Made by a program: the position numbers and the translations under genes. DNA of 64,000 nucleotides from an uncultured Thermoleophilia bacterium (lineage in GTDB: Bacteria > Actinomycetota > Thermoleophilia > UBA2241): assembly GCA_963702475.1 (NCBI GenBank), contig CAVPCT010000003.1, positions 352,001 through 416,000 of the forward strand, given 5' to 3'. Shown here piece after piece: positions 25,774 through 44,525 of the stretch (the first letter of the stretch is position 1; every line of letters starts with the position of its first letter). The notes beneath the pieces are model-generated. The model was not told the DNA's origin. It did not search any database and saw only the letters and a program-made list of their open reading frames with translations.

Positions 25774-27450
25774 GTGGCAACGGAACCTGAGCATCACGCC
25801 ACCACATGTTCCACGACGAGATGGACGCGCAGCACAAGCGCGACACCGAGCAGTTGGCCAAGTTCGGCTACACCCAGGAGCTCAAGCGCTCGCTCGGCTT
25901 CTTCTCCACCTTCGCCATCGCCTTCAGCTTCATCTCGGCGACCAACGGCTTCTACGCGCTCTTCTACTTCGGCCTGGACGTCGGCGGCCCGGCCGGCCTG
26001 ATCTGGCAGTGGCCGATGATCGTGTTCGGCCAGTTCATGGTCGCTCTGGTGTTCGCCGAGGCCGCCTCGCATTACCCGCTGGCCGGCGGTGTGTACCAGT
26101 GGGCCAAGCGGTTCATGGGCGGGAGCTATGGCTGGTTCGTGGCCTGGCTGTTCGCGGCGGCGCTTCTGGTGACGGTCGCGGCGGTCGCCTTCGGAGTGGC
26201 GCCGATCGTCTGCTCGCTCATGGGCTGGGATGCAAGCAACGCCACCACGCTGCTCTGGATCGCCATCGCCTTCGCCCTTGGCCCGATGATCCTGAACATC
26301 CTGAGCGTCAAGGTGACGGCCTTCTTCAACAACATCGGGACCGTCACCGAGATCATCGGGCTGGTGGTCATCGCCATCGCGTTGTACGCCGCCGTCATCT
26401 TCGGCAAGGGCGACCATCAGACCCTGGGCGTACTCTTCGATACCACGCCGGCGCCGGCCCCGGAGCCCTGTTCGGGTACGGCAGCATCTTCCTTGCGAGC
26501 ATGCTCACGGGCGCGTGGGTGCTGTACGGGTTCGACTCGGCGGGCGGTCTCGCCGAGGAGACCGTCAACCCGACACGTGAGGTGCCGCGGGCCATGCTGT
26601 TCGCGATCGGCATCACCGCCGTGCTCAGCGCGTTCTGGCTGGTTTCTATGGTCCTGGCCATCCCGGACGTCGCCGAGACGCAGGCGCAGGGGACGGGCGC
26701 GATCGCGTACATCTTCGATGCGCACTTCCCGACCTGGGTCACGGACCTCTTTCTCGTGGCGGTGATTGTGGCGATCTTCGTGTGCTGCCTGGCGATCCAA
26801 GCTGCTACGACGCGCCTGCTGTTCGCCTACGGTCGTGACAAGATGATCCCCGCCTCCAGGTTCTTCGCCTACGTGCATCCCAGCACGCGCACGCCGATGA
26901 CCTCTGCCATCTTCGTGGCCGTGGCCGCAGTCGTGGTGCTGCTCTACGTGAACCTCGGCGGCAGCGACCCCTTCCTCGCCATCGCCCGCGTCACCGCGTG
27001 GGCCACCGCAGGCACCTACATCGCCTACCAGATGGTCGTCTTCGGCGGCCTCGTGGCGAGATCAAGGGCTGGCCCAAGGAGAAGGCGTACTTCAACCTCA
27101 AGGGTTGGGGCTGGCCGGTCAACATCCTCGCGCTCATCTACGGCGTCTTCATGATCATCAATCTGGCGTGGCCGCGGACGCCCGACGCTGCCTGGTACGA
27201 CAACTACCTGGTCGTCGTCTCGCTGGCCGTCGTGCTCATCGCCGGCATCATCGTGTACGTCATCCAGCGGGCGCGTGGCGTCGACCTGAGCGTGACCATC
27301 CACGAGATCGACGAGTCGCCGGCCGAAGCCGTCGCGGTCGAGGCGATGGCGGCAGGTGAAGCCGGCCGCATGCTGAACACCGATGTGGTCACAGAGATGC
27401 AGCAGATGTCCGCAGACGACGATCCTGGGAAGGGAGGGATCACTTCGTAG
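25774..27450 (+). CDS. APC-family amino acid/amine permease; apparent frameshifts (~25800, ~26445, ~27062)
   Basis: GYTQELKRSL.FFS.FA.AFS, YPLAGGVYQW, YGFD.A..LAEET.NP, RLLFAYGRD, TP across three frames. Confidence 0.85.
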
Positions 27451-29267: not shown

Positions 29268-30500
29268 TCAGGGGGTCGCGGATGCGGCCGGCGACGCAGT
29301 CGCCCCGGCCGTGAGCTGCTCGAAGCCCTCGGCCAGCGACAGGAGCTCCTGGCGGGTGAGGGCGCCGGTGACGTAGACGGCCCGGCGTCCGTTGCCGACC
29401 AGCAGCGTCGGTCCGGTGGCCGCGTACCACGTGGCGGCGGTCCGCCCGGCGAAGACCCCGTACTCGAGCGGCGTCTGCTCGAACGACAGCGCCGTGGCGC
29501 GCGCGGTCTCCAGGGCGCTCTCGAAGGCGGCTGGAGACGTCGTCGGGCCGACCTGGCGGACCTCGAACCAGGTGAGGCCGCGCGTGAACAGCTGGACTAT
29601 CTGGCGCGCGGAGCCGGCTCCCGTACTCCCGCCTGTCTCGGAGCCCCACACCGCCGGCGCGTCGCCGGCCGCCGCCGTGGCGACCGCGGCCTGCACGAAG
29701 CCGTCGGGCGCGAGGCTGGAGACGAGCGGGTCGAAGCCGGCGGCCTCGCCGGCGGCCGCCGAGGACCGCTCGTAGGTGTAGGTGCGGTCCACCGTGACGG
29801 TGGCCGGAGCGGTGGTCCCCAGAGTCGAGGCGCCGGGCGAGGGCGTGCCGTCGAGAGTCGCCCAGTCGACGCCGGCGGCGAACGTGGAGGAACCGTCGGT
29901 CCACCAGGTCACGAGTCCGGACGACTGGTCCACGACCAGCTCCTGGGTCGCGCCGTCGAGCTTCAGCGCGGCACGCCACACCTCGCGCCCATCCTGTTCG
30001 AGCGGTTTGATGCCGACGCTCGTGTCGCCGTCCTCGACTGCCGCTCTGACGATGGCGGACAGGCCCTGGAGCTCGAGTGGCGAGTGAGTACTCAGGCGCC
30101 AGACGGGGGGCCAGGCGCCGACGGTGACGGCGCCGCCGCGCTCCGCCCCGTCCACGGTGGTCCATTCGCTGCGTCTTCCGGCGTCGTAGGAGGATGAGAC
30201 CAGAGCGGTGCTCTCGTCGTCCGGGCGGAACGCACCGGTCGCGTCCCCTCCGGCGGTCGCCGCGAACGCGCCCCCGCCGGCGCGCCCTGCTCCGTCAGCG
30301 GACGCGCTCTGCCACGTGTAGGTCCCGCTCGCACTGCGCAGGACGGGCGCCGGCGGCTGCGGCGGCGTCCGGATGATGAAGACGTAGGCCAGCACGAACA
30401 GCACTGAGAACGCCAGCAGCATGGTGGAGAGGCCGTGTGGGCGGGTGTGCGCCCGGGCCGCCCGGATGCGCTGGCTGGTACGGCGCGGTGGTTCGATCAT
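29268..30500 (-). CDS. Membrane-anchored extracytoplasmic protein, LolA/RseB-like (paralog of the 35199 protein)
   Basis: N-terminal TM helix; C-terminal blocks align with the anti-sigma candidate at 35199-36620. Confidence 0.7.
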   Translation of the reverse strand: MIEPPRRTSQRIRAARAHTRPHGLSTMLLAFSVLFVLAYVFIIRTPPQPPAPVLRSASGTYTWQSASADGAGRAGGGAFAATAGGDATGAFRPDDESTALVSSSYDAGRRSEWTTVDGAERGGAVTVGAWPPVWRLSTHSPLELQGLSAIVRAAVEDGDTSVGIKPLEQDGREVWRAALKLDGATQELVVDQSSGLVTWWTDGSSTFAAGVDWATLDGTPSPGASTLGTTAPATVTVDRTYTYERSSAAAGEAAGFDPLVSSLAPDGFVQAAVATAAAGDAPAVWGSETGGSTGAGSARQIVQLFTRGLTWFEVRQVGPTTSPAAFESALETARATALSFEQTPLEYGVFAGRTAATWYAATGPTLLVGNGRRAVYVTGALTRQELLSLAEGFEQLTAGATASPAASATP

Positions 30501-30536
30501 GGCGTGACGCGGGCGTGCGGACCGCTCGGCGGGCGC

Positions 30537-30677: not shown

Positions 30678-30950
30678 GGCGACAGCGTGACGGGCGCGGC
30701 GGCGCTACGCAAGCCGCGCCTCCGCGGGAGCGCTGTCGGCGACGTCGCGCCGGGCGCTGTGAGGTGCATGCTTCTTCCGCCCCGGCCCAGGCATCATCAC
30801 CCCGTCGGCATCCTCAGCGTTCGTTGCAGAATACAACCATCGCAGAGGCGTCTGACGTCGAGTCTGCTGGGTCTGCCGGTGGCGGCGCGACCGCGGCGTG
30901 TGATTACCTTGGGGTCAGTCTCAGTGGCACCCGCCCCGAGGAGGAAGGGC

Positions 30951-32420
30951 GTGAAACGCAATCTGTTCGCGGGCCAGCGCCGCACCAGCGGCATCGGCCT
31001 CACCATGTTCAGCGACGACGAGCTCCGTATGATCCACCGCGGCACGCTCGTCGTCCTCGAGCGCACCGGCATCTGGGTGGAGCTGGACGAGGCGCTCGAC
31101 ATCTTCAGCGACGGCGGCTGCAGGGTCGACCGGGAGTCGCACATCGTCAGGATCCCGCCGCACATCGTGGAGGACTGCATCGCCGCCGCCCCCGAGGCCG
31201 TGGCGCTGTGCGGCCGCGACCCGAGGAACGACATCCTGCTCGAGCCCGGGCGCGTGGGCTTCAGCAACTTCGGCGAGGGCATCAAGGTCATCGATCCCTA
31301 CACCGGTGAGCTGCGGCCGTCCACCAAGAAGGACCTCGGCCAGATCGCCCGCCTGGTCGACGCGCTGCCCGACATCGACGTGTTCGAGATGGCCGTGGTC
31401 AGCGGCGACAAGCCGCCCGAGACGTTCTCGCTGCACAACCACGAGGCGGCGATCGTCAATCAGACGAAGCCCATCTCCGGCGGGGCCCAGGATGGCCGCG
31501 CCGTGCACACCACCGTCGAGATGCTGGCGGCCGTGCAGGGCAGCGAGGATGCGGTGCGCGAGCGCCCCATGATGGTCATGGGCACCTGCCCGGTGAGCCC
31601 GCTCAAGCTGGTCAAGGACTTCTGCGAGATCGTCATCGAGGCGGCGCGCGTCGGGCTGCCGTCCTGCGTGCTCAGCATGGCGATGGCCGGCGGCTCGTCG
31701 CCGGTGACGCTGGCCGGGACGCTCGTGACGCACAACGCCGAGGTGCTGGCCGGCCTCGTGCTCGCGCAGCTGACCGAGCGCGGCAGCAAGGTCCTGTACG
31801 GCTCGTCCACCACGGCCATGGACCTGCGGCTGGTCACGGCCTCCGTCGGCTCCCCCGAGTGCGCTCTCATCAGCGCCGGAGCGGCCGCGCTCGCGAAGCA
31901 GTACCGCCTGCCCAGCTACATCGCCGGGATGTAGGGCGACGGCAAGACCAGTGACGTGCAGACCGGTCACGAGAAGACCCTCACGGCTCTGATGGCGGCG
32001 TTGGCAGGGACCAACCTCATCTACGGGTCGGGCATGATCGAGTCGGGCGTCACCTTCGACTTCGCGCAGCTGGTCATCGACGACGAGATCGCGCGCATGG
32101 TCAAGCAGGTGGTCGGCGGCGTGCGCGTGGACGACGAGACGCTGGCGGTGGACGACATCGCCTCGGTCGGCTCGTTCGGCGACTTCCTCAGCCTGGACGC
32201 GACCATGGCGCACATGCGCGAGCAGTCGCAGCCCCGGCTCATGGACAGGCGCGTGCGCGAGGAGTGGGAAGAGGCGGGGAGCCCCGGCATGTACGAGCGC
32301 GCCCACGCCAGGGCACGCGACATCCTCGAGAACCACAGGCCGGAGCCGCTGCCCGACGACGTGCGGCAGCGGGTCCGCGACATCGTCGACCGTGAGGACA
32401 GGGCGGCCGGCAGGGCCTGA
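30951..32420 (+). CDS. mttB: Trimethylamine:corrinoid methyltransferase MttB, predicted pyrrolysine at the in-frame TAG 31932-31934 (codon 328; 489 aa)
   Basis: RBS GAGGAGGAAGG; MKRNLFAG...FSDDEL..IH..TL.VL, SPL, MAMAGGSSPVTLAGTLVTHNAEVLAG, GSPE..LIS, AGM*GDGK...GHEKTLT, G.N.IYGSGM; frame continues after TAG. Confidence 0.95.
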
Positions 32421-32639
32421 CGGGCGCGCCGGTGAGGGGGCCGGGCGGCGCCTTGCGGCGCCACCCGAAGCATCGTCCTACTGCGGCCGCCGCCGGGGCC
32501 GCCGCGGCCGCGCCCCCGGCGGCGGCCGCCGACGTGTCCGACCCGCTGCAGGCGGCGAGGACGAGCGCCGCCGCGGCTTCGAGGCCGGCGCTCATGGCCA
32601 CTCCCCGGCGGAGTCTCGATCCCCATCGTCAGCGCATGA

Positions 32640-33674
32640 CTACTTCGCCTTCACGATCACTCCCGCCCAGACCCACGTGTCGCCCGGCGCGAGAGGGCGC
32701 CGCTCCATGAAGTGCCAGAAGGCGCAGTAGTAGAGATCCGCACATGCGCCCGACCCCGAGGACGTCCAGTACTGGAAGTGCTCGATCCCGCCGGGCCCGC
32801 GCACAGCCGTCGATCCGAGGTCCTCCCAAGCCCCGTCCTTGGTGGTCAGGGTGGACCACGAGGAGGAATCGATGCTGCCGTCGCGTCGCCGGTGGCCGAT
32901 CTCCTCGATGAAGCCTTCAAGCCGGCCGCTCACGCGCGGGTCCGACTGCTCGAGGTCAAGGATCCAAGGATCCGAGGTGTCGTATGCCGTCTGTCTCATG
33001 GTGGCGATGCCGACGACCGGCGTCCAGTTCGCCGGCGCCGTGCCGGGGCCGGGGGCCGGCGGCACCGGGCTCCCGTCGGTCGTCTCGATCCAGCCCGCGC
33101 CGACGTACTTGGTACTGGGATTCACCCAGCCCGCGCCGGCCTCCGGGAACCACCAGCACCCGCGCGTGACGAGGCCTGCGTAGTCGCCCGTCCCCCTCGC
33201 GCTGCGGTGGGCGGGTTGGCCTCCCATGTCCGCCGCGCGGCCAGCGATGCCGCCCGTCCACCTGCCCAGCCAGGTCCCGCCCTGGTTGCGCAGGCGCCAC
33301 GTGCCCCGCATGCGGGCGCTCCCGCCTTGGCGCGCTTCGAGGTAGATCACTATGTCGACCCTGCCGCTCAGGCGCGGATCGGAGCTCTCCTGGCGGAGTG
33401 TGCAGACGGTGTACCATTGTCTGCGGCCGCCGATCTGCTTGAAGTCTTCGCGCCTACCGGTCTGCGACTGCGTCCAGACGTAGGGGAGCATGCCGTGGAA
33501 CTCGTGGACGGACGCAGAAGGCGTGACTGCGGCGGACGTGCTGCTCGCCGCCGCCGGCCCTGAGGCCACTCCGCCGGCCGTGCTCGCGCACGCCGTCGCG
33601 CACGCCGTCACCGCTGCCGTGCCCACCAAAAGGCACAGCAGGCTCACCATCCTCGATGCGACCCGGTCCTTCAT
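32640..33674 (-). CDS. Putative lipoprotein with duplicated beta-rich domain (SDPRxSG repeat)
   Basis: Signal with ACA/ACAS; two internal repeats; paralog of the 33762-34799 protein; RBS AGGAAGGAG. Confidence 0.75.
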   Translation of the reverse strand: MKDRVASRMVSLLCLLVGTAAVTACATACASTAGGVASGPAAASSTSAAVTPSASVHEFHGMLPYVWTQSQTGRREDFKQIGGRRQWYTVCTLRQESSDPRLSGRVDIVIYLEARQGGSARMRGTWRLRNQGGTWLGRWTGGIAGRAADMGGQPAHRSARGTGDYAGLVTRGCWWFPEAGAGWVNPSTKYVGAGWIETTDGSPVPPAPGPGTAPANWTPVVGIATMRQTAYDTSDPWILDLEQSDPRVSGRLEGFIEEIGHRRRDGSIDSSSWSTLTTKDGAWEDLGSTAVRGPGGIEHFQYWTSSGSGACADLYYCAFWHFMERRPLAPGDTWVWAGVIVKAK

Positions 33675-33761
33675 GCTCACTCCTTCCTGCTGCCGGACCA
33701 TGTCCTGCGCAACGTGGCGCGGCCGGGCGGCGCCCCCAGGGGCCGCCCGGCTGCGCAGCCG

Positions 33762-34799
33762 TCACTCGGTCTTCTCGACCCAGCCCGTGTACACGAACGT
33801 GTCGCCGGGCACGATGTCGCGCGGCTCGGGGAAGAACCAGAAGCCGTGGTACGTGAGCCCCACGTAGGCGCCCGACCCGGCCGCCGTCCAGGACATGAAG
33901 TGCTCGAACCGCGGACCGGGGCCACGCACGTCGAGCTCCGCCGGCGCCTTCCAGGATCCGTCCTGGTTCCTGACGGTGCTCCACGAGCGATAGTCGATGC
34001 TGCCGTCCGTGCGCGGGTAGCCGATCTCCTCCACCTCACCCTCCACGCGGCCGCTCAGGCGCGGATCCGACTGCTCGACGTCCCAGACCCAGGGCTGGTC
34101 GTCGTCGTAGGACGTGCGCACCGTGGTCGCGATGCCGACGACGGGCCTCCAGTCCACCGGCGTCGTGCCGGGCCCCGGGGTGGGCGGCACCGGGCTGCCG
34201 TCGGCCGTCTCGATCCGGCCCGCGTACACGATCTCGATGTCGGGCGTGAAGCCCTCGCCTGCCTCCACGAACGTCGCCGTCGCGCGATAGACGAGGCCGG
34301 TGTACTCCCCGGTCCCCTTCATCGTCAGGCGCAGGTAGTGCACGTCGCCGCCGGCGGCGACGCCCCCCGTCCACTTCCCGGTCCAGGCGCCGGCCGCGTT
34401 GCGCACGACGCTGGTGCCCCGGAGGGCGGCGCTCATGTCCGCCTGGCGCTGGTCGACGTTGATCACGACGACGTGGTTGCCGCTCAGGCGGGGGTCGGAG
34501 CTCTTCTGCAGCAGCTTCCACTGGGCGTGACGCATGCGCTTGACCCCGTCGACCGTCGTGACGCTCCGGTAGTCTCCGGTGTCGTACACCCTGCCGATGC
34601 AGACGACCGGCAGCATGCCGCGGAACTCCGCGACGGGTGCCGGCGGCGCGCTCGCGACCGGCGTGGCGCCGGCCGCCACCGGCGCGGAGGCTGCGCCCCC
34701 GCCGGTGGTGCCGCACGCCGACAGACCGGCGGTCGCCAGAGCAGCGGCCAGCAGCGCGTATAGCGCGAACAGCGTCCCCCACAAGGCCCTTCCAGACAT
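33762..34799 (-). CDS. Putative lipoprotein with duplicated beta-rich domain (SDPRLSG x2)
   Basis: Lipobox LSAC; RBS GAGGAGAGG; paralog of the 32640-33674 protein. Confidence 0.8.
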   Translation of the reverse strand: MSGRALWGTLFALYALLAAALATAGLSACGTTGGGAASAPVAAGATPVASAPPAPVAEFRGMLPVVCIGRVYDTGDYRSVTTVDGVKRMRHAQWKLLQKSSDPRLSGNHVVVINVDQRQADMSAALRGTSVVRNAAGAWTGKWTGGVAAGGDVHYLRLTMKGTGEYTGLVYRATATFVEAGEGFTPDIEIVYAGRIETADGSPVPPTPGPGTTPVDWRPVVGIATTVRTSYDDDQPWVWDVEQSDPRLSGRVEGEVEEIGYPRTDGSIDYRSWSTVRNQDGSWKAPAELDVRGPGPRFEHFMSWTAAGSGAYVGLTYHGFWFFPEPRDIVPGDTFVYTGWVEKTE

Positions 34800-34839
34800 G
34801 GCCTCTCCTCCCTCTCGGCGGAGAGGTTCTCCGCTCACC

Positions 34840-34872
34840 CAGACAGACCGGGAGGCCGGGCCGCTTCTTCGC
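34840..34872 (-). promoter_or_regulatory. Putative ECF-sigma promoter, copy 1
   Basis: GCGAAGAAGCGG-N8-CCCGGTCTGTCTG; the same motif and spacing occur at 37338-37370. Confidence 0.65.
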
Positions 34873-34969
34873 CGCCGCCGTTGGCCGGGGGGTTGGCTCG
34901 TGTGCGGCAGGGAGTGCTGGTCGATCAAGGGGTTGGGAGCCCGCTACCCGCGGGCGCACTCCACCTTTC

Positions 34970-35205
34970 AGTCCGCCTCGCGCGGGGCCCTCTCGGGCCG
35001 CGAATCGCTCAACAGCACTCCGGCGGCTTCGCACGCTACGGGCGTTAGTCCGCCTCGCGCGGGGCCCTCTCGGGCCGCGAGTCGCTCACTAGCGCTACGG
35101 CAACTGCGTCGCCTGCGGGCATTAGTCCGCCTCGCGCGGGGCCCTCTCGGGCCGCGAATCGCTCAACAGCACTCCGGCGGCTTCGCACGCTACGGGCGTT
35201 AGTCC
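34970..35205. repeat. Three 77-bp tandem structured repeats (units 1 and 3 identical, unit 2 variant)
   Basis: AGTCCGCCTCGCGCGGGGCCCTCTCGGGCCGCGA starts at 34970, 35047 and 35124; partial AGTCC at 35201. Confidence 0.95.
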
Positions 35206-36620
35206 TGGGTCGCCGGAGCCGCCGGGTACGCCTGCAGCGAGTTCGCGACCTCGAGGAGCTCCTCGGCCGTGGCCGCTCCCGCGATCGTCAGGAGGACGCC
35301 TTCCTTGACGGCCCAGAGGTGAGGCGCGGACGACGTGGTCGCGACCACGATGCTCGCCGTCTGGCCGGCGAAGGCGCCGGAGGTGATCGGGGCCCGCGTG
35401 AGGACCAGCGCGGTCCAGGAGGGGTCGTACGCGTCCACCGGGTCCTCGCGCGCCGTGTAGTACGGGTCGGCGATGGTGCGCGTGGAGACCGTGAGCGCGT
35501 CGAAGCCGTGCGTGTACTGCAGCTCGAAGATGTGACGCGTGCGGACGAGGTGGTTCGCCGTGAGTGCCTCCTCCGCCACTGCCGCGGCGGCCAGGCTGAA
35601 GCCGGACGGCACGAACCCAGGCACGAGCGGCGTCACTCCCGGGAGCCCGCCCGCCTCCTCCAAGGTGACGCGCCGGAAGCCCGCGTCCATGTGCCGGACC
35701 GGCCGCCTCTCGGCCGCCGGCAGCGAGAACGCGTTCGCCGGCAGTGGCTCGTTGTAGCGGACGTCCAGGTACCGCAGGTCGGCGATGAGCACCCCTCCTT
35801 CGATTTGCTGGAAGCGAAGGGGGAGCCACGTGCGCTTGTCGACCGTGACCTTGTAGACGGGCCAGTCGACGGTCGAGCCGGAGACCGCTCGCTTGCCGAT
35901 GTCCCCCTTCGTGCAGGTCACCGTCCAGGCCGGACGGCCGTCCACCACGGTGTCCTCGAGGGTGAAGGCGCCGGCCGCCTCCATGGCGCGCCCGCCGCTC
36001 CCGAAGTCGACCCCCGTCAGCGGGTCGGCGGGCGCGTCCGGCGGCCCGAGCGGGACGTTGCGCGTGACGACCAGTCCTCGTCCTGCGCGGTAGTGGCCGA
36101 GGACGCTTGTCTTGGCGTCGTAGACGAGGACGTCGGTCGGCTGCGCGGAAGCGGACGCGCCGGACCCGCCGTGGCGGGTCCGCCCCAGCTGGGTGAGGCG
36201 GTAGCTGCCGTCGGCGCTCTGCAGCAGGTGGTAGCGGAGGTAGTCGTAGTGGTAGCCGATCAGGGACCGGTTCCAGTCGGTGGCCTTGAGCGTCACGTCG
36301 GCCTGCCAGGTGCGTCCAGACGACGAGGCGGTCAGCACGCGCTTGAGTATCGTGCCGGCGTCGACGGGCTCCGGGCCGCGAGAGCGCGGCAGACCGAAGA
36401 GGACGGCCGCGGCGGCCACCGCGACGACGGCGGTGGCGACGGCGGCGAGGCGCAGGCGCCGGCCGCCGAGGGTGGCGCGCAGTCGTTGTGCGAGACTGGG
36501 GTGCGGTTCTGCGGCGGCGCGAAGCTGCAGGCGGAGCCGATCCCAGTAGTCCGGCGCGTGGTCCGGCTCGGCGATGCTCTCGAGCCGGCGTCCGAGCTCG
36601 ATGTCGCGCTGCTCGTTCAC
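35199..36620 (-). CDS. Putative anti-sigma factor: cytoplasmic N-terminus, TM helix, LolA/RseB-like extracellular domain
   Basis: GTGA overlap with the ECF sigma gene; ELGRRL...DH.PDYW..L, single TM, VDKRTWLP...YNEPLP..F. Confidence 0.75.
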   Translation of the reverse strand: MNEQRDIELGRRLESIAEPDHAPDYWDRLRLQLRAAAEPHPSLAQRLRATLGGRRLRLAAVATAVVAVAAAAVLFGLPRSRGPEPVDAGTILKRVLTASSSGRTWQADVTLKATDWNRSLIGYHYDYLRYHLLQSADGSYRLTQLGRTRHGGSGASASAQPTDVLVYDAKTSVLGHYRAGRGLVVTRNVPLGPPDAPADPLTGVDFGSGGRAMEAAGAFTLEDTVVDGRPAWTVTCTKGDIGKRAVSGSTVDWPVYKVTVDKRTWLPLRFQQIEGGVLIADLRYLDVRYNEPLPANAFSLPAAERRPVRHMDAGFRRVTLEEAGGLPGVTPLVPGFVPSGFSLAAAAVAEEALTANHLVRTRHIFELQYTHGFDALTVSTRTIADPYYTAREDPVDAYDPSWTALVLTRAPITSGAFAGQTASIVVATTSSAPHLWAVKEGVLLTIAGAATAEELLEVANSLQAYPAAPATQD

Positions 36621-37315
36621 GGCTCCAGCTCACGGCCGACTGTGGCGCCGAGGCTGTGGCGTAGCCTGGCTCGTGCCGAGGACAGGCGCGAGGCCAAGGT
36701 CCCCATGGGTACGCCGAGGATGTCCGCCGCCGCCGAGTAGTCGAAGCCCTCGCGGTCGACCAGCAGGACGGCCAGACGTTGTTCGGGCGACAGGGCGGAC
36801 AGGGCCGCCGCGAGTGCCTCGCGGACCGCCAGCGCGTCGGCGGGGTCCGGGTCACAGTCGTCTGGCTCGGGCATCTCCTCCGGAGGTAGAGGGACCAGCC
36901 GCCTGGACCGCGCTACGGCGTCGCAGCAGGCGCGGTAGGTGATGCGGCAGAGCCAGGTGCTCAGCGACGCCTCCCCGCGAAAGCCGGCGAGCGAGCGGTA
37001 GACCCTGAGCGAGACCTCCTGGAGGACGTCGTCCATCAGCTGGCGGTCCGCCAGCGTGTGATAGGCGACGATGCGCAGGCGGCGGTCGTAGTGCCGCATG
37101 ACGGCGATGAACGCCTCGCCGTCGCCGGCTGCGGCCGCGGCGAGGACGCTCGGGTCGATCTCCTCGGTCCTCCGGGCCACGGCAGACACGGCCGCCCCTC
37201 CCTCCGGACGCCTGACCCTCCTCTGGATGAACGTACCACTCCCGGGGAGTCGCAGGCCCGTTGCCGCGAGGGCGCTGTCGGCCCCAACACGAGCCGCGAC
37301 CGTCGTCGCGTGCAT
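36617..37315 (-). CDS. ECF RNA polymerase sigma factor (alternative start GTG 37189)
   Basis: GD.EAF, DDVLQEV.LR.YR.L..FRGE.S..TWL.RI, L.PEQR.AV.L...EG.DY...A.ILGVP.GT..SRL..AR. Confidence 0.92.
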   Translation of the reverse strand: MHATTVAARVGADSALAATGLRLPGSGTFIQRRVRRPEGGAAVSAVARRTEEIDPSVLAAAAAGDGEAFIAVMRHYDRRLRIVAYHTLADRQLMDDVLQEVSLRVYRSLAGFRGEASLSTWLCRITYRACCDAVARSRRLVPLPPEEMPEPDDCDPDPADALAVREALAAALSALSPEQRLAVLLVDREGFDYSAAADILGVPMGTLASRLSSARARLRHSLGATVGRELEP

Positions 37316-37337
37316 GGCTCCTCTCCCTCCTCTCGGT

Positions 37338-37430: not shown

Positions 37431-38123
37431 TCAGTTCCCCGAGAGCACCCAGTCCTTGGCGGCTGCCAGGTGCACCTTGAGGGTGTACCCTGCGCCGCCG
37501 TCGGTGACGGAGTACGCGAAGTCGCCGTTGCCCGTCCCCTGCGCCATGGGCGCGTGCGTCCAGGGGTTCTGCGGCCACACGGGCACGCCGGGCTGCAGGC
37601 CGACCGCGCCGGCGGCGCCCAGGTCGGCCCCGGCCGGCGGCGTGCCGCCGTGGCCGGCCCTCCACGCCTCGACATAGCTCTGCAGCAGCGCCAGGCCGGC
37701 CTTGCTCGCGTCGTCGCGGTCGGTCTTGAGCCACGCCGGGACGCCCCCGGTGAGCTTGTAGTCGCCGCTCGACAGGTGGCCGATGAGCGTGTAGCCGGTG
37801 CCGTCGGCTTTCAATCTGTAGGTGTAGGTGCCCCTGCTGGTGCCCGGAGCCATGGTCTTGCCGGTCCACGGGTTGCCCGGCCACACCGGCGCCACCAGGG
37901 CGCCGCCCTTCTTGACGTCGGCGACAGCGGGGTAGGTGAAGCCGTCCTTCTCCGCCTGGGTGTTGACGTAGCCCTGCAACAGCAGGACGTTCATCTGCAC
38001 CTGCTTGTCGACGAAGCTCGGGGCGGCGGCGGCCTGCTGCGGCAGCGCCGCGGCCGTGAAGAAGGAGAGCGCCGCGGCCGCGAGCACCGCGGCGCCGCGC
38101 CTCAGCGGGACATGTTTCGGCAT
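37431..38123 (-). CDS. Secreted protein with two pilin/GspG-head-like WPxNP domains
   Basis: RR-containing signal ending AAA; repeats WPGNPWTG..M..G...G.YTY and WPQNPWT..PM..G...G.FAY. Confidence 0.75.
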   Translation of the reverse strand: MPKHVPLRRGAAVLAAAALSFFTAAALPQQAAAAPSFVDKQVQMNVLLLQGYVNTQAEKDGFTYPAVADVKKGGALVAPVWPGNPWTGKTMAPGTSRGTYTYRLKADGTGYTLIGHLSSGDYKLTGGVPAWLKTDRDDASKAGLALLQSYVEAWRAGHGGTPPAGADLGAAGAVGLQPGVPVWPQNPWTHAPMAQGTGNGDFAYSVTDGGAGYTLKVHLAAAKDWVLSGN

Positions 38124-38259
38124 GGGTGCCTCCTCGAAACGCCTCGGAGTGTCGTCTCAGTGTCTCCGCCCCGCCTCTCCGCGGTCAACCGCGGCGGCGA
38201 CCTGTGCCATGGTGTGCGGTCCGGTGCCGGGCTACTGCATTTGGTCTAGGATGCGGGGC

Positions 38260-39648
38260 ATGGAACCCCGCTTCCCCACCCGCATGGGCGACGGCTTCAT
38301 GGTCGAGAGGACGCGCAGCGAGCTGCGCGCCGACATCGAGGACGCGACGCGTGAGGCGGCGCGCAAGGCCAAGGCGCCGCCACTTGCCTCCGACGAGCAA
38401 GAACACCTGCTCGACATCTACGCCTCTCGCGCGGCCTTCACGGCCGTCGACATCGGCGACCAGGTCGTGCTGAGCTGCGATGGCGGCGGCAGCAAGATGA
38501 CCGGCACCGACCTGCTCGACCTCCTGGAGAGCGAACAGCGTCTGGGCCAGGACATCCTCGAGCTGTGGCACATCGAGTACAGCTACAAGGCCATCAAGAC
38601 GATCCTGCCGTTCCAGCAGCAGGTGATGCAGAACGTCCAGCTGATGCTCACCGCTCCGGTGCAGTACGGCGCCCAGCCCAACCTCGCCTTCTACAGCCGG
38701 CCGGACGGGCCGTGCGAGAACTGGTTCGAGCTGCTGCCGCGTGGCGACGTGGCGGGCGCCCGCGCGGCCGTCGAGGAGGCCATGGAGTACGCCACGCAGG
38801 ACTTCGTGTACGTGGCGGACGGCATGATCGAGGCCGGCGCCGACGGCGTGGACTTCGACACCACCGGAGGCGCCGGCGACGCCGACCTCTTCAGCACCCT
38901 CCGCGCCGTGAAGCACGTCCGCGAGCGGTACCCGGAGGCCGGCGTGGAGCTCGGCATGGCCGGAGAGTTCGTGATCGGCGTGCACGGCGAGCTCGCCTGG
39001 GACGGCCGGCGGCTCGCCGGCCTCTGGCCCAAGGGCCAGCTCGAGGTCGCGCAGGACGCCGGCGCCACCATCTTCGGACCGGCCGTCAACATCCGCACCG
39101 GCCGGTCCTGCTGCTGGAACACGGCGTACTCGCTCACCGTCATCAAGCCGTGTATGGAGGTAGCGCGCATCCCCGTCCACGTGAACGTGGGCGAAGGGGT
39201 CTGCGGCGTGCCCGTGAACGGCTACCCGCCCGAGGACGCGTCGTCACGGGCGGCCAAGGCGCACGTGGAGATCCTCGGCTGCGACGGCTTGTAGGTCGGC
39301 TCGGGTGACTCCAGGGGCATGGACGTCACCCACGCGCTCGCCGCGGGCATGGGCGGCATGCGCACGGCCGGAGACCTGGTCGCGCGCCTGCAGATGTCCC
39401 GGGGCATGCGCCTCACGGAGGCGAAACGGTACGTCGCGGAACGGCTGGCTTGCTCGGTCGGTGATCTGAGCGACAGCTACGCGATGGAGCAGCTGCGCGG
39501 CGAGCTGGGTCTGGGGCGGATCCTCGACCACTCGAACCTGCACCCCGGCAAGCCGAACGCGCTGGCGGCGAAGTTCCGTATCGCTGAACTGCTCGGCCTG
39601 CGGATCAACTCGGTGGAGCGCTTTCGGGAGCTGGCGGGGCTGGCGTGA
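38260..39648 (+). CDS. mtbB: Dimethylamine:corrinoid methyltransferase MtbB, predicted pyrrolysine at the in-frame TAG 39292-39294 (codon 345; 462 aa)
   Basis: TRMGDG, EL.HIEYSYK, YGAQPNL..Y..PDGP.EN, GADGVDFDTTG.AGDAD, GMAGE.V.G.HG.L..DG..LAGLWP, FGP.VN, DGL*VGSGD..GM, GMR.AGDLVAR, INS. Confidence 0.95.
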
Positions 39649-40120: not shown

Positions 40121-40251
40121 GGTCCCGACCTTCTCCTCCCGGGCTGGATACCGCTCAAGGCGGTTCCGCCAAACGCCAGACCGCACAGATGGCTGCAGGA
40201 TGAGTCCGGAGCGGCCGATAGTCCACCTGACACCTGCGAGGGAGGAGCGAG

Positions 40252-40629
40252 ATGAGACGATCCGTGATCTGCCTGGCCGCCGCGCTGGCCGTGCTCGCGC
40301 TCGCGGCGGCACTCGGCGCCTGTGGCTCCGAGGACATCCAGACACCGACCGACACCATCGACATCGCCAAGGACCAGGCCGTCAAGGCGCAGATCATGAT
40401 GATCAAGACGGGCGTGACTGCCTACGTCCAGCTGAACGGCGTGGCGCCTGCGAACGCGTCCGCGGAGACGCTCGGGAGCTTCGTGCAGCCCTGGCCGGAC
40501 AACCCCTTCACGCAGGCGCCGATGAAGCAGGGCAAGGAGCCGGGCGACATCGCCTATGCGCCCGGCGCCGGCACGGCCTACACCCTCGGCGTGGTGGTGT
40601 CCGACGGCAGCGTGTACAACGCGCCGTGA
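40252..40629 (+). CDS. Lipoprotein with pilin/GspG-head-like WPxNP domain
   Basis: Lipobox LGAC; KDQAVKAQI..I..GV.AY...WPDNPFT..PM. Confidence 0.78.
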   Translation: MRRSVICLAAALAVLALAAALGACGSEDIQTPTDTIDIAKDQAVKAQIMMIKTGVTAYVQLNGVAPANASAETLGSFVQPWPDNPFTQAPMKQGKEPGDIAYAPGAGTAYTLGVVVSDGSVYNAP

Positions 40630-43388: not shown

Positions 43389-44465
43389 TCAGGGAACCGT
43401 GTACGTGAGGCCGCCGGACACGTAGCCCGTGAGCCGGTAGCCGGCGCCGCCGTTGAGCTGCTCGTAGATGTACGCGCCCGGACTGGTCCCCGGATTCATC
43501 GGCTGACCGTCGTACGGGTTCGTGGGCCACGGATCCACAAACTGGGCGACGTCACCGTCTTGGGTGACGTCTTGCGGCGCGGGATACAGGCCGTTGTTGT
43601 TCGTCGACCAGGTCATGATGCCCGCCTGGATGCGGTCGATGCCGTCGATGACCTGCTGGGCCTCTGCCGACTGCGTCGGGGTCGGGCTCGCGGTCGGTGA
43701 CGAGGTCGGCGAGAGAGTGGGCGATGGGGAGACCGTCGGGGACGGCGAGCTGCTGGGGGTGACCGGTACCAGGGCCGGCACGCGGCCCAGGGGCATGCTG
43801 ATGGTGGTCTCGTTCGCTCCCGTCACGCTCATCGTGATCTCGTCGCCATCCGCCCCGGGGCTGAGCGTGACGTCGTAGGGGCCGGGGATGCCGGCCAGTG
43901 ACGCGGACGTCTCCAGTGCGAACGTGAGGTCCTCGCCCTCTGCGGCCGCGACGGCCGAACCCAGTACGCGCACCATCGTGTCGTACACAGTGATCTGGTA
44001 CTCACCCGAGGTGCGCTGCACCACGATGCCTCCGCCGCTGCCGTCGGTGGGTGCCCAGGCGCCAACCCAGGCGAACGCGACGGTTGGCGTCGGTGTGGGC
44101 GTCGGCGCCGGCTCGGCGCCCTGGTCACGGATGAGGAAGTACCAGGCCGCGGCCGCAGCCGCCAGCGCGACGAGGATGACGATCACGACGATCCAGCCCG
44201 CGGATGAGCCCTCCCGGGGCGGGCGCGACGACATCACCAGCGTCGGCGCCGGGCCGGGCGACGGGGGCGCGGCTCCGCCGGCCGGCATGACCCGGGTGGG
44301 CTCGGCGAGCTCACCCGCCATCACCCGGGTGGCGTCCTCGGGCGGCACGACCGAGGTCGGGTCGTCGTCGGGGCCGGTATCCCCCGGCCACGCCCGCGTG
44401 GCCTCGGTGTCCTGGTCTGGTGCACCCGCCTGTCCTTCGGGCGTCCCCTCGATGTCGTCGTCCAT
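43389..44465 (-). CDS. Membrane-anchored protein: ATRV-repeat cytoplasmic tail, TM, beta domain, S/P/T linker, C-terminal WPxNP pilin-head-like domain
   Basis: EATRA/DATRV/EPTRV repeats, TM helix, WPTNPYDG.PM..G...G.Y.Y. Confidence 0.78.
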   Translation of the reverse strand: MDDDIEGTPEGQAGAPDQDTEATRAWPGDTGPDDDPTSVVPPEDATRVMAGELAEPTRVMPAGGAAPPSPGPAPTLVMSSRPPREGSSAGWIVVIVILVALAAAAAAWYFLIRDQGAEPAPTPTPTPTVAFAWVGAWAPTDGSGGGIVVQRTSGEYQITVYDTMVRVLGSAVAAAEGEDLTFALETSASLAGIPGPYDVTLSPGADGDEITMSVTGANETTISMPLGRVPALVPVTPSSSPSPTVSPSPTLSPTSSPTASPTPTQSAEAQQVIDGIDRIQAGIMTWSTNNNGLYPAPQDVTQDGDVAQFVDPWPTNPYDGQPMNPGTSPGAYIYEQLNGGAGYRLTGYVSGGLTYTVP

Positions 44466-44525
44466 GCTCGCCCTCCCCGGCCGGGTGACGTGAGTGGTGG
44501 TTTCGTGACCCTGTATTTGCCCCGT

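Follow-up and report, generated by a model that had tools for sequence, protein, structure and literature searches.

The DNA analysed here, hereafter the window, is a stretch of 64,000 nucleotides (positions 352001-416000 of contig C3) from a 4.31-Mb draft genome of an uncultured Thermoleophilia bacterium of the phylum Actinomycetota, assembled in nine contigs with an estimated completeness of 93.8% and contamination of 6.5%. At 30951-32420 on its forward strand it carries a gene for a trimethylamine:corrinoid methyltransferase, MttB, that is interrupted by one in-frame amber codon. As shown below, this is an intact mttB of the pyrrolysine (Pyl) type, in a soil or sediment actinobacterium that encodes the full Pyl machinery together with an unusually large set of Pyl-type genes. 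The frame has 490 translated positions, in which the only internal stop is the TAG at codon 328 (31932-31934), found in the context LPSYIAGM*GDGKTSDVQTGHEKTLT and followed by 161 sense codons and a TGA at 32418-32420. The original prediction, made from the letters of the window, had described a single TAG at this codon with an open frame of about 160 codons behind it, had taken the gene for a genuine trimethylamine demethylase rather than a pseudogene, and had named a phylogeny, an alignment to the Methanosarcina barkeri enzyme and a comparison of selection on both sides of the TAG as means of checking this; retranslation agrees with it on the codon and the frame and supplies the exact count. 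Read through the TAG, the frame matches the Pfam family MTTB (PF06253) with 309.5 bits (E 3.4e-92) over profile positions 31-497 of 500, and its G+C contents at the three codon positions (GC1 0.71, GC2 0.49, GC3 0.90) have the pattern of true genes in a genome of 70% G+C. The GTG start at 30951 is right, since the orthologues and M. barkeri MttB align from residues 1-3 on. The gene is monocistronic, with a divergent neighbour upstream and a convergent lipoprotein-like gene downstream (Table 1).

A search of the sequences in the PDB with the mttB product placed M. barkeri MttB at the top (7xcm, 398.7 bits; 7xcl, 396.1 bits), residues 2-485 of the product aligning with residues 3-491 of the archaeal chain, and codon 328 falls on residue 334 of that chain, which is X (pyrrolysine) in 7xcl. 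The glycine betaine enzyme MtgB (9yce, 2qne) reached 228 bits in the same search. The alignment proposed as a check therefore puts the TAG on Pyl334, and the two proteins are colinear over their full length (PDB 7XCL, 7XCM, 7XCN) and share the motif AG-x-Pyl-x-D-x-K...D-x-Q-x-GHEKT. The active-site residues of M. barkeri MttB, as given in the accessible part of the structural study (PMC9842639), are Gly110, Thr111, Met249, Pyl334 and Tyr364, and the same source reports Gly110 and Tyr364 to be fully conserved across 66 Pyl-MttBs. Gly110, Met249 and Tyr364 are kept in the window protein as Gly108, Met243 and Tyr358, and UAG328 occupies the position of Pyl334; the position of Thr111 is taken up further below.

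Conservation among relatives was followed at the level of both DNA and protein. A six-frame search covered 30 related genomes, 18 of the same genus and 12 from other families of the class, and MttB matches containing a single TAG occurred in 18 of the 18 and in one of the 12, respectively. Fourteen of the same-genus genomes carry an orthologue of the window gene, 76-86% identical over 483-488 residues. When the window gene and these 14 orthologues were compared over the first 468 codons, without gaps and in 105 pairs, codon 328 was TAG in 15 of the 15 sequences, and other stops were absent. The median ratio of nonsynonymous to synonymous substitution rates (dN/dS, Nei-Gojobori) was 0.178 in codons 1-327, as compared with 0.217 in codons 329-468; the strong GC3 bias may inflate both values, but they point to the same regime on either side of the TAG. 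The sequence 3' of the UAG is under purifying selection, and the relaxation that a dead downstream half would display was not seen. In a search of a collection of 5.8 billion proteins, 71 of the 120 matches listed, at 64-94% identity, span no more than the N-terminal 57-67% of the query, and most of these 71 are exactly 327 residues long, which is the signature of gene callers halting at the same TAG. The remaining 49 extend over 82-100% of the query and are 45-59% identical to it; in each of the 14 that were aligned, the Pyl column is occupied by a sense codon (8 Leu, 2 Trp, 2 Val, 1 Ser and 1 Ile).

These data bear directly on the possibility that the gene is a former MttB inactivated by a nonsense mutation, from which at most an N-terminal piece of 327 residues would be made. 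With translation table 11 the frame does halt at codon 328, the public gene calls of relatives end at 327 amino acids, and TAG often serves as a genuine stop in the genome. A pseudogene is nevertheless very improbable: the TAG occupies the catalytic Pyl column in all 15 orthologue sequences and in 13 of the 13 near-full-length TAG-bearing MttB genes of the genome itself, where it stands in the same alignment column, the downstream part combines its low dN/dS with a lack of further stops, and the full Pyl machinery is encoded. Because the codon recurs at this column in both sets, its presence is not a chance event. Thus the view that the gene is genuine and not a pseudogene has held up on all these counts. 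Even less probable is a split gene, in which polypeptide 1-327 and a second product would together form an enzyme devoid of pyrrolysine. There is indeed an open reading frame (ORF) of 154 codons that opens at GTG 31956, eight codons past the TAG and the first possible restart codon. However, D330, K332 and D335, encoded between the TAG and this GTG, are invariant in an alignment of 17 sequences and this stretch must therefore be translated, which argues against a split gene; such a break would, moreover, remove the catalytic residue aligned with Pyl334.

The genome contains 75 matches to MTTB, 51 of them near full length; 13 of these 51 have one TAG and 38 are of the non-Pyl kind. Around the UAG the 13 genes share the motif AG-x-UAG-x-D-x-K...D-x-Q-x-(G/A)-(H/Y)-EKT. 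A quick IQ-TREE phylogeny of 72 rows was built from the 51 paralogues, eight UAG-bearing relatives and 13 sense-codon proteins from the database, the fourteenth aligned sense-codon protein (P0075) having been left out as one of the genome's own paralogues. No root was inferred for this tree and archaeal MttB is absent from it; relatedness to M. barkeri MttB is judged instead from the search of the PDB. One clade of 36 rows, with a support of 99 in the Shimodaira-Hasegawa-like approximate likelihood ratio test (SH-aLRT), takes in all 21 TAG rows, and the window mttB belongs within it to an orthologue clade of four rows, all with TAG (SH-aLRT 100). The 36-row clade excludes the remaining 36 non-Pyl paralogues of the genome, and the window gene groups apart from them. 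The phylogeny thus gave the placement that had been expected, and neither a position among non-Pyl members nor close relatives with a sense codon were found: among the matches listed, sense codons at the Pyl column occur only at 59% identity or below, and relatives at 60% or above carry TAG. The non-Pyl members of the superfamily, such as MtgB (glycine betaine), MtcB (carnitine), MtpB (proline betaine) and MtyB (gamma-butyrobetaine), belong to the same Pfam family and the same TIM-barrel fold family as the window protein, but their substrates are quaternary amines and the Pyl column of their genes holds a sense codon, whereas the window gene has TAG there.

The Pyl clade also holds 15 sense-codon rows nested among the others, and the branches starred in the tree force at least four changes of state. 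Two Leu paralogues of the genome, C4:42554-43939 (+) (L040) and C4:59973-61358 (-) (L041), lie inside the clade, keep GHEKT and read AGG-L-G/S-D-G-K at the UAG site. Since these paralogues fall in the Pyl clade and the same column holds Leu, Trp, Val, Ser or Ile in relatives from the database, the sequences suggest that pyrrolysine has been replaced repeatedly by a sense codon.

The genes required to make and insert pyrrolysine are encoded on the same contig, 240-290 kb from the window mttB, in a cassette that spans C3 637.9-658.4 kb (Table 1), and all the Pyl protein models score above their curated cut-offs. Among the 51 tRNA genes found by aragorn, no tRNA with a CTA anticodon other than tRNA-Pyl was present; the genome also has a tRNA-Sec gene. 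The layout is of the bacterial split-synthetase type. Acetohalobium arabaticum and Bilophila wadsworthia are likewise bacteria with a split PylS. In the available descriptions of Desulfitobacterium hafniense and of the Olavius delta1 symbiont (PMC9630628, PMC1976440), separate pylSn and pylSc accompany clustered pylBCD and pylT, as here, but in the window genome pylSc lies about 15 kb from pylBCD-pylT-pylSn and on the other strand.

Table 1. Features of the mttB locus (window positions) and of the Pyl cassette (positions on contig C3)
Feature	Position	Strand	Remarks
Divergent upstream neighbour, no Pfam match	29271..30536	-	Conserved neighbour of the mttB orthologue group
Shine-Dalgarno-like GAGGAGG	30938..30944	+	6 nt 5' of GTG start 30951; read from the sequence
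mttB, Pyl-type trimethylamine:corrinoid methyltransferase	30951..32420	+	489 codons plus TGA, through one UAG; Pfam, M. barkeri alignment, 15/15 colinear orthologue sequences
In-frame TAG, codon 328, predicted pyrrolysine codon	31932..31934	+	On Pyl334 (X) of 7xcl_A; column kept in paralogues and orthologues
Rfam RF02510 (PYLIS_3, mttB) match	31932..32031	+	60.8 bits, gathering score 38; starts exactly at the TAG
mttB portion 3' of the UAG	31935..32417	+	161 codons; Tyr358 (Tyr364 of M. barkeri MttB) and dimerisation loop region
pylB	C3:637885-638913		438.1 bits (cut-off 348)
pylC	C3, directly after pylB		322.7 bits (cut-off 248)
pylD	C3:640193-640975		209 bits (cut-off 150)
tRNA-Pyl, anticodon CTA	C3:641046-641118		Found by aragorn
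pylSn	C3:642228-642485		126.2 bits (cut-off 51)
Corrinoid protein gene	C3:643673-644248		219.9 bits
UAG-bearing mtbB	C3:655986-657347		581.1 bits
pylSc	C3:657647-658372	Opposite to other Pyl genes	314.6 bits (cut-off 178)

An RNA signal for insertion, in the form of the PYLIS_3 match that begins at the TAG, was considered and rejected. The minimum free energy of the 100 nt after the TAG is -28.6 kcal/mol, compared with a mean of -33.8 for shuffled sequences (z = +1.43); of 200 shuffles, 189 were equally or more stable, and several helix pairs of the model are flagged as non-canonical in mttB. We therefore read the match as coding-sequence homology to Pyl-type mttB and not as an insertion element.

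Taken together, the alignment, the tree, the selection test and the Pyl cassette argue that the window mttB is almost certainly a working gene decoded with pyrrolysine, the actual insertion of which we infer from the sequences. We hypothesize that the UAG at codon 328 would be decoded as pyrrolysine by tRNA-Pyl(CUA), charged by the split PylSn/PylSc synthetase with pyrrolysine made by PylB, PylC and PylD, to yield an MttB-type methyltransferase of 489 residues. On the model of the homologous M. barkeri enzyme, trimethylamine may then add to the pyrroline imine of Pyl328, assisted through a bound water by Tyr358 and the backbone carbonyl of Gly108, and the activated methyl group would pass to the Co(I) of a corrinoid protein, releasing dimethylamine. 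The partner would be one of the approximately 25 corrinoid proteins encoded elsewhere in the genome. Its methyl-Co(III) form might in turn be used by a URO-D-type or pterin-binding methyltransferase to give methyl-tetrahydrofolate, which would enter the Wood-Ljungdahl pathway, with RACo-type activases repairing oxidised corrinoid. The gene content is consistent with these partners and with this fate of the methyl group: the genome has four matches to RACo-type corrinoid activases at three places, eight to URO-D-family methyltransferases and three to pterin-binding proteins, and the gene of acetyl-CoA synthase AcsB adjoins one RACo and one pterin-binding gene. M. barkeri is a methanogen and the host of the window gene is a bacterium, in which, unlike in M. 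barkeri, the methyl group cannot reach coenzyme M; a folate and Wood-Ljungdahl fate is proposed for it. As for the substrate, the original prediction had called the product a trimethylamine demethylase; alignment and tree bear out the Pyl-type MttB part of that name, and trimethylamine is the probable substrate, to judge from homology and the conserved active-site residues. To the whole explanation, pyrrolysine decoding and trimethylamine together, we assign a probability of roughly 0.78.

Several observations weigh against this reading, and the first of them concern the reads. In a check of sequencing runs for read support, none contained half of the sampled words, the best reaching 0.39. The Logan contigs that lie on mttB are short and some are 88-95% alike, partly from relatives, which makes for weak read data; among the records listed, one bridges the TAG with at least 31 letters on each side (X1 record 7, with nine differences), and none of the contig difference rows listed falls at 31932-31934. 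Contigs from an RNA library match mttB at 88-95% likeness and are therefore uninformative on transcription of the window copy. This lack of clean read support, along with a draft in nine contigs and its estimated contamination, could be taken to mean that the TAG arose through an error of sequencing or assembly in an MttB of the sense-codon, non-Pyl kind. We give next to no credence to this, since 14 further species of the genus, assembled independently, have the same TAG and database proteins from many sources end at 327 amino acids. Even taken together, a pseudogene, a split gene and an assembly error are highly improbable.

A further weak point is the crudeness of the ORF calls, made with a GC3-based filter, on which the figures for stop-codon use rest. 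By this count TAG ends 423 of 2961 ORFs (14%), TGA 2451 and TAA 87. Genome-wide reassignment of UAG is ruled out by these terminations, and decoding would therefore be a matter of competition at individual UAGs and not of a change in the code of the whole genome. The same holds in the split-PylS bacteria, where, in the available texts, TAG stays a frequent stop and pyrrolysine is confined to methylamine methyltransferases (PMC9630628, PMC1976440). Among the 423 ORFs ended by TAG, 68 continue in frame for at least 60 codons with a coding-like G+C pattern; about 20 of these correspond to the methyltransferases already known, and in many other cases the continuation is probably a following gene that shares the frame. 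Further Pyl proteins, if any, would sit among these 68.

The remaining points on this side concern the corrinoid partner and the substrate. None of the genome's 25 corrinoid-protein matches lies inside the window, and the window mttB has neither an adjoining mttC corrinoid gene nor a permease, unlike M. barkeri mttB. In a comparison of 99 loci of relatives (some records being present twice, and orthologue type meaning at least 75% identity), none of the 38 orthologue-type loci had a corrinoid gene within 1.5 kb, against 38 of 61 paralogue-type loci, whereas a homologue of the divergent upstream protein stands beside mttB in 28 of the 38 orthologue-type loci and in 0 of the 61 of paralogue type. 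The window copy is therefore outside the canonical mttB-mttC arrangement, a conserved orphan whose partner must be encoded elsewhere; adjacency of mttC is usual, but it is not defining for a Pyl-MttB enzyme. In addition, Thr111 of M. barkeri MttB is replaced by Glu109 in the window protein, at a position whose role is given to its backbone in the portion of the structural study available (PMC9842639), and the 13 TAG-bearing MttB genes are only 49-59% identical to each other, which means that one common substrate is not required.

These points lead to the idea that the gene is a genuine Pyl-MttB, but that its orphan group uses another methylated amine, or is a specialised isozyme with a different corrinoid partner, the 13-fold expansion reflecting diversification of substrates. 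Besides the divergence of the TAG-bearing paralogues, which share 49-59% identity with the window copy, the conserved neighbourhood peculiar to the orthologue group and the Glu at the Thr111 position, this idea draws on the loss of the Gly110 equivalent (the column of window residue 108) in five of the 13 UAG-bearing copies, where it is Asp (L029, L039) or Ala (L034, L036, L037) despite its full conservation in the 66 Pyl-MttBs of the available structural text (PMC9842639). In one further UAG-bearing copy (L038), the equivalent of Met249 is Ile. To our knowledge, every characterised Pyl-MttB is a trimethylamine enzyme, and Pyl-MttB is treated as trimethylamine-specific in the part of a permafrost study available to us (PMC10805028). 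The window copy itself keeps Gly108, Met243, Pyl328 and Tyr358 and, at 398.7 bits against 7xcm, ranks second in likeness to the M. barkeri enzyme among the four TAG paralogues scored, the others being a copy on C7 (410.9 bits), one on C9 (373.6 bits) and one at C6:373684 (318.4 bits). A Leu variant reached 340.7 bits, and an MttB copy from another family of the class 460.1 bits. We consider another amine or a specialised partner rather unlikely for the window enzyme, and trimethylamine is preferred.

The distribution of the gene points to a lineage of Actinomycetota. In a collection of species-representative genomes, the best 80 loci come nearly all from uncultured metagenome-assembled genomes (MAGs) of Thermoleophilia, Actinomycetes or Actinomycetota, with one record labelled Deltaproteobacteria. 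PylSc was found in 22 of 25 sampled genomes of the family to which the window belongs, in two of 25 of a second family and in 0 of 99 of the other families of the class. Within the genus, one genome that is 93% complete (G004) has three full-length MttB matches with one TAG and no PylSc match, and two others that are 98% complete (G031 and G032, 1.7-1.8 Mb) have no PylSc match either; possible reasons are that the Pyl system was lost inside the genus or that the assemblies have gaps. Pyl genes in Actinobacteria are already in print, and the window mttB adds another. According to the available text of Guo et al. (2022; PMC9630628), two Actinobacteria are among 81 bacterial genomes with PylRS, and in that of Ellenbogen et al. 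(2023, mSystems; PMC10805028) expression of Pyl-encoding mttB and mtbB is stated for some of the Actinobacteriota MAGs of thawing permafrost. The latter are genes of the same kind in the same phylum, with the amber recognised by truncation; the accessible part of that article holds no residue-level, selection or Pyl-cassette analysis, all of which are given here for the window gene.

In number of Pyl genes, the genome stands out more than the locus. It has 21 full-length UAG-bearing methyltransferase genes, namely 13 for MttB, seven for MtbB and one for MtmB, compared with eight Pyl proteins in a deltaproteobacterial symbiont, that of Olavius (delta1), a number described as the largest in bacteria in the part available of Zhang and Gladyshev (2007; PMC1976440). 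The genome (C2-C9, 4.3 Mb) also has four non-Pyl MtmB homologues. We found no description of a large Pyl-MttB expansion in Actinomycetota in the literature, subscription journals and supplements being outside the scope of the search. It is conceivable, though doubtful, that this is the largest bacterial Pyl proteome yet, with 21 UAG genes in 4.3 Mb, MttB paralogues (the orphan group included) diversified to other methylated amines, and UAG still ending about one in seven ORFs. If so, the lineage would need some way to limit the harm from read-through at true stops.

The single mttB gene is of modest interest, and the genome-level expansion is more notable. As the 71 truncated database records illustrate, standard annotation cuts a working enzyme in two, and this hides the use of trimethylamine by Actinomycetota of soil and sediment, which is relevant to the cycling of methylamines and to the competition with methylotrophic methanogens. 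With its 21 Pyl genes, a Pyl cassette that is patchy by family and sense-codon variants inside the Pyl clade, the lineage is a natural test bed that could help to answer how bacteria tell a Pyl-UAG from a stop-UAG, how pyrrolysine is lost or replaced, and whether its chemistry serves substrates beyond tri-, di- and monomethylamine.

The window holds other features. A gene for the dimethylamine methyltransferase MtbB, at 38251/38260-39648 (+), has one in-frame TAG (39292-39294) and matches Pfam Dimeth_Pyl with 508 bits; an Rfam PYLIS_2 (mtbB) match of 56 bits begins exactly at this TAG. It is one of the seven full-length UAG-bearing mtbB genes of the genome and has no adjoining corrinoid gene. 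Between the mttB and mtbB genes lies an extracytoplasmic function (ECF)-type sigma factor gene, 36620-37336 (-) (Sigma70_r2, r4_2), followed by a gene for a membrane-anchored protein of 476 residues that matches no Pfam family, 35202-36629 (-), which is probably the anti-sigma factor of its neighbour. Tandem paralogous lipoprotein-like genes at 32595-33761 (-) and 33765-34967 (-), with no Pfam match, share long motifs that include ...TADGSPVPP.PGPGT...SDPR.SGR.EG..EEIG.... An amino-acid permease gene, 25806-27154 (+), is apparently split, with AA_permease_2 positions 1-172 in the frame 25806-26765 and 189-380 in the frame 26009-27154, possibly by a frameshift or an assembly error. Finally, three secreted proteins without a Pfam match, encoded at 37434-38156 (-), 40231-40626 (+) and 43392-44525 (-), have in common a short C-terminal module, P-W-P-x-N-P-[WFY]...P-M...G-T-x-x-G-x-[YF]-x-Y...G-Y-T-L, apparently a small domain family without a name that is dispersed around the Pyl genes.

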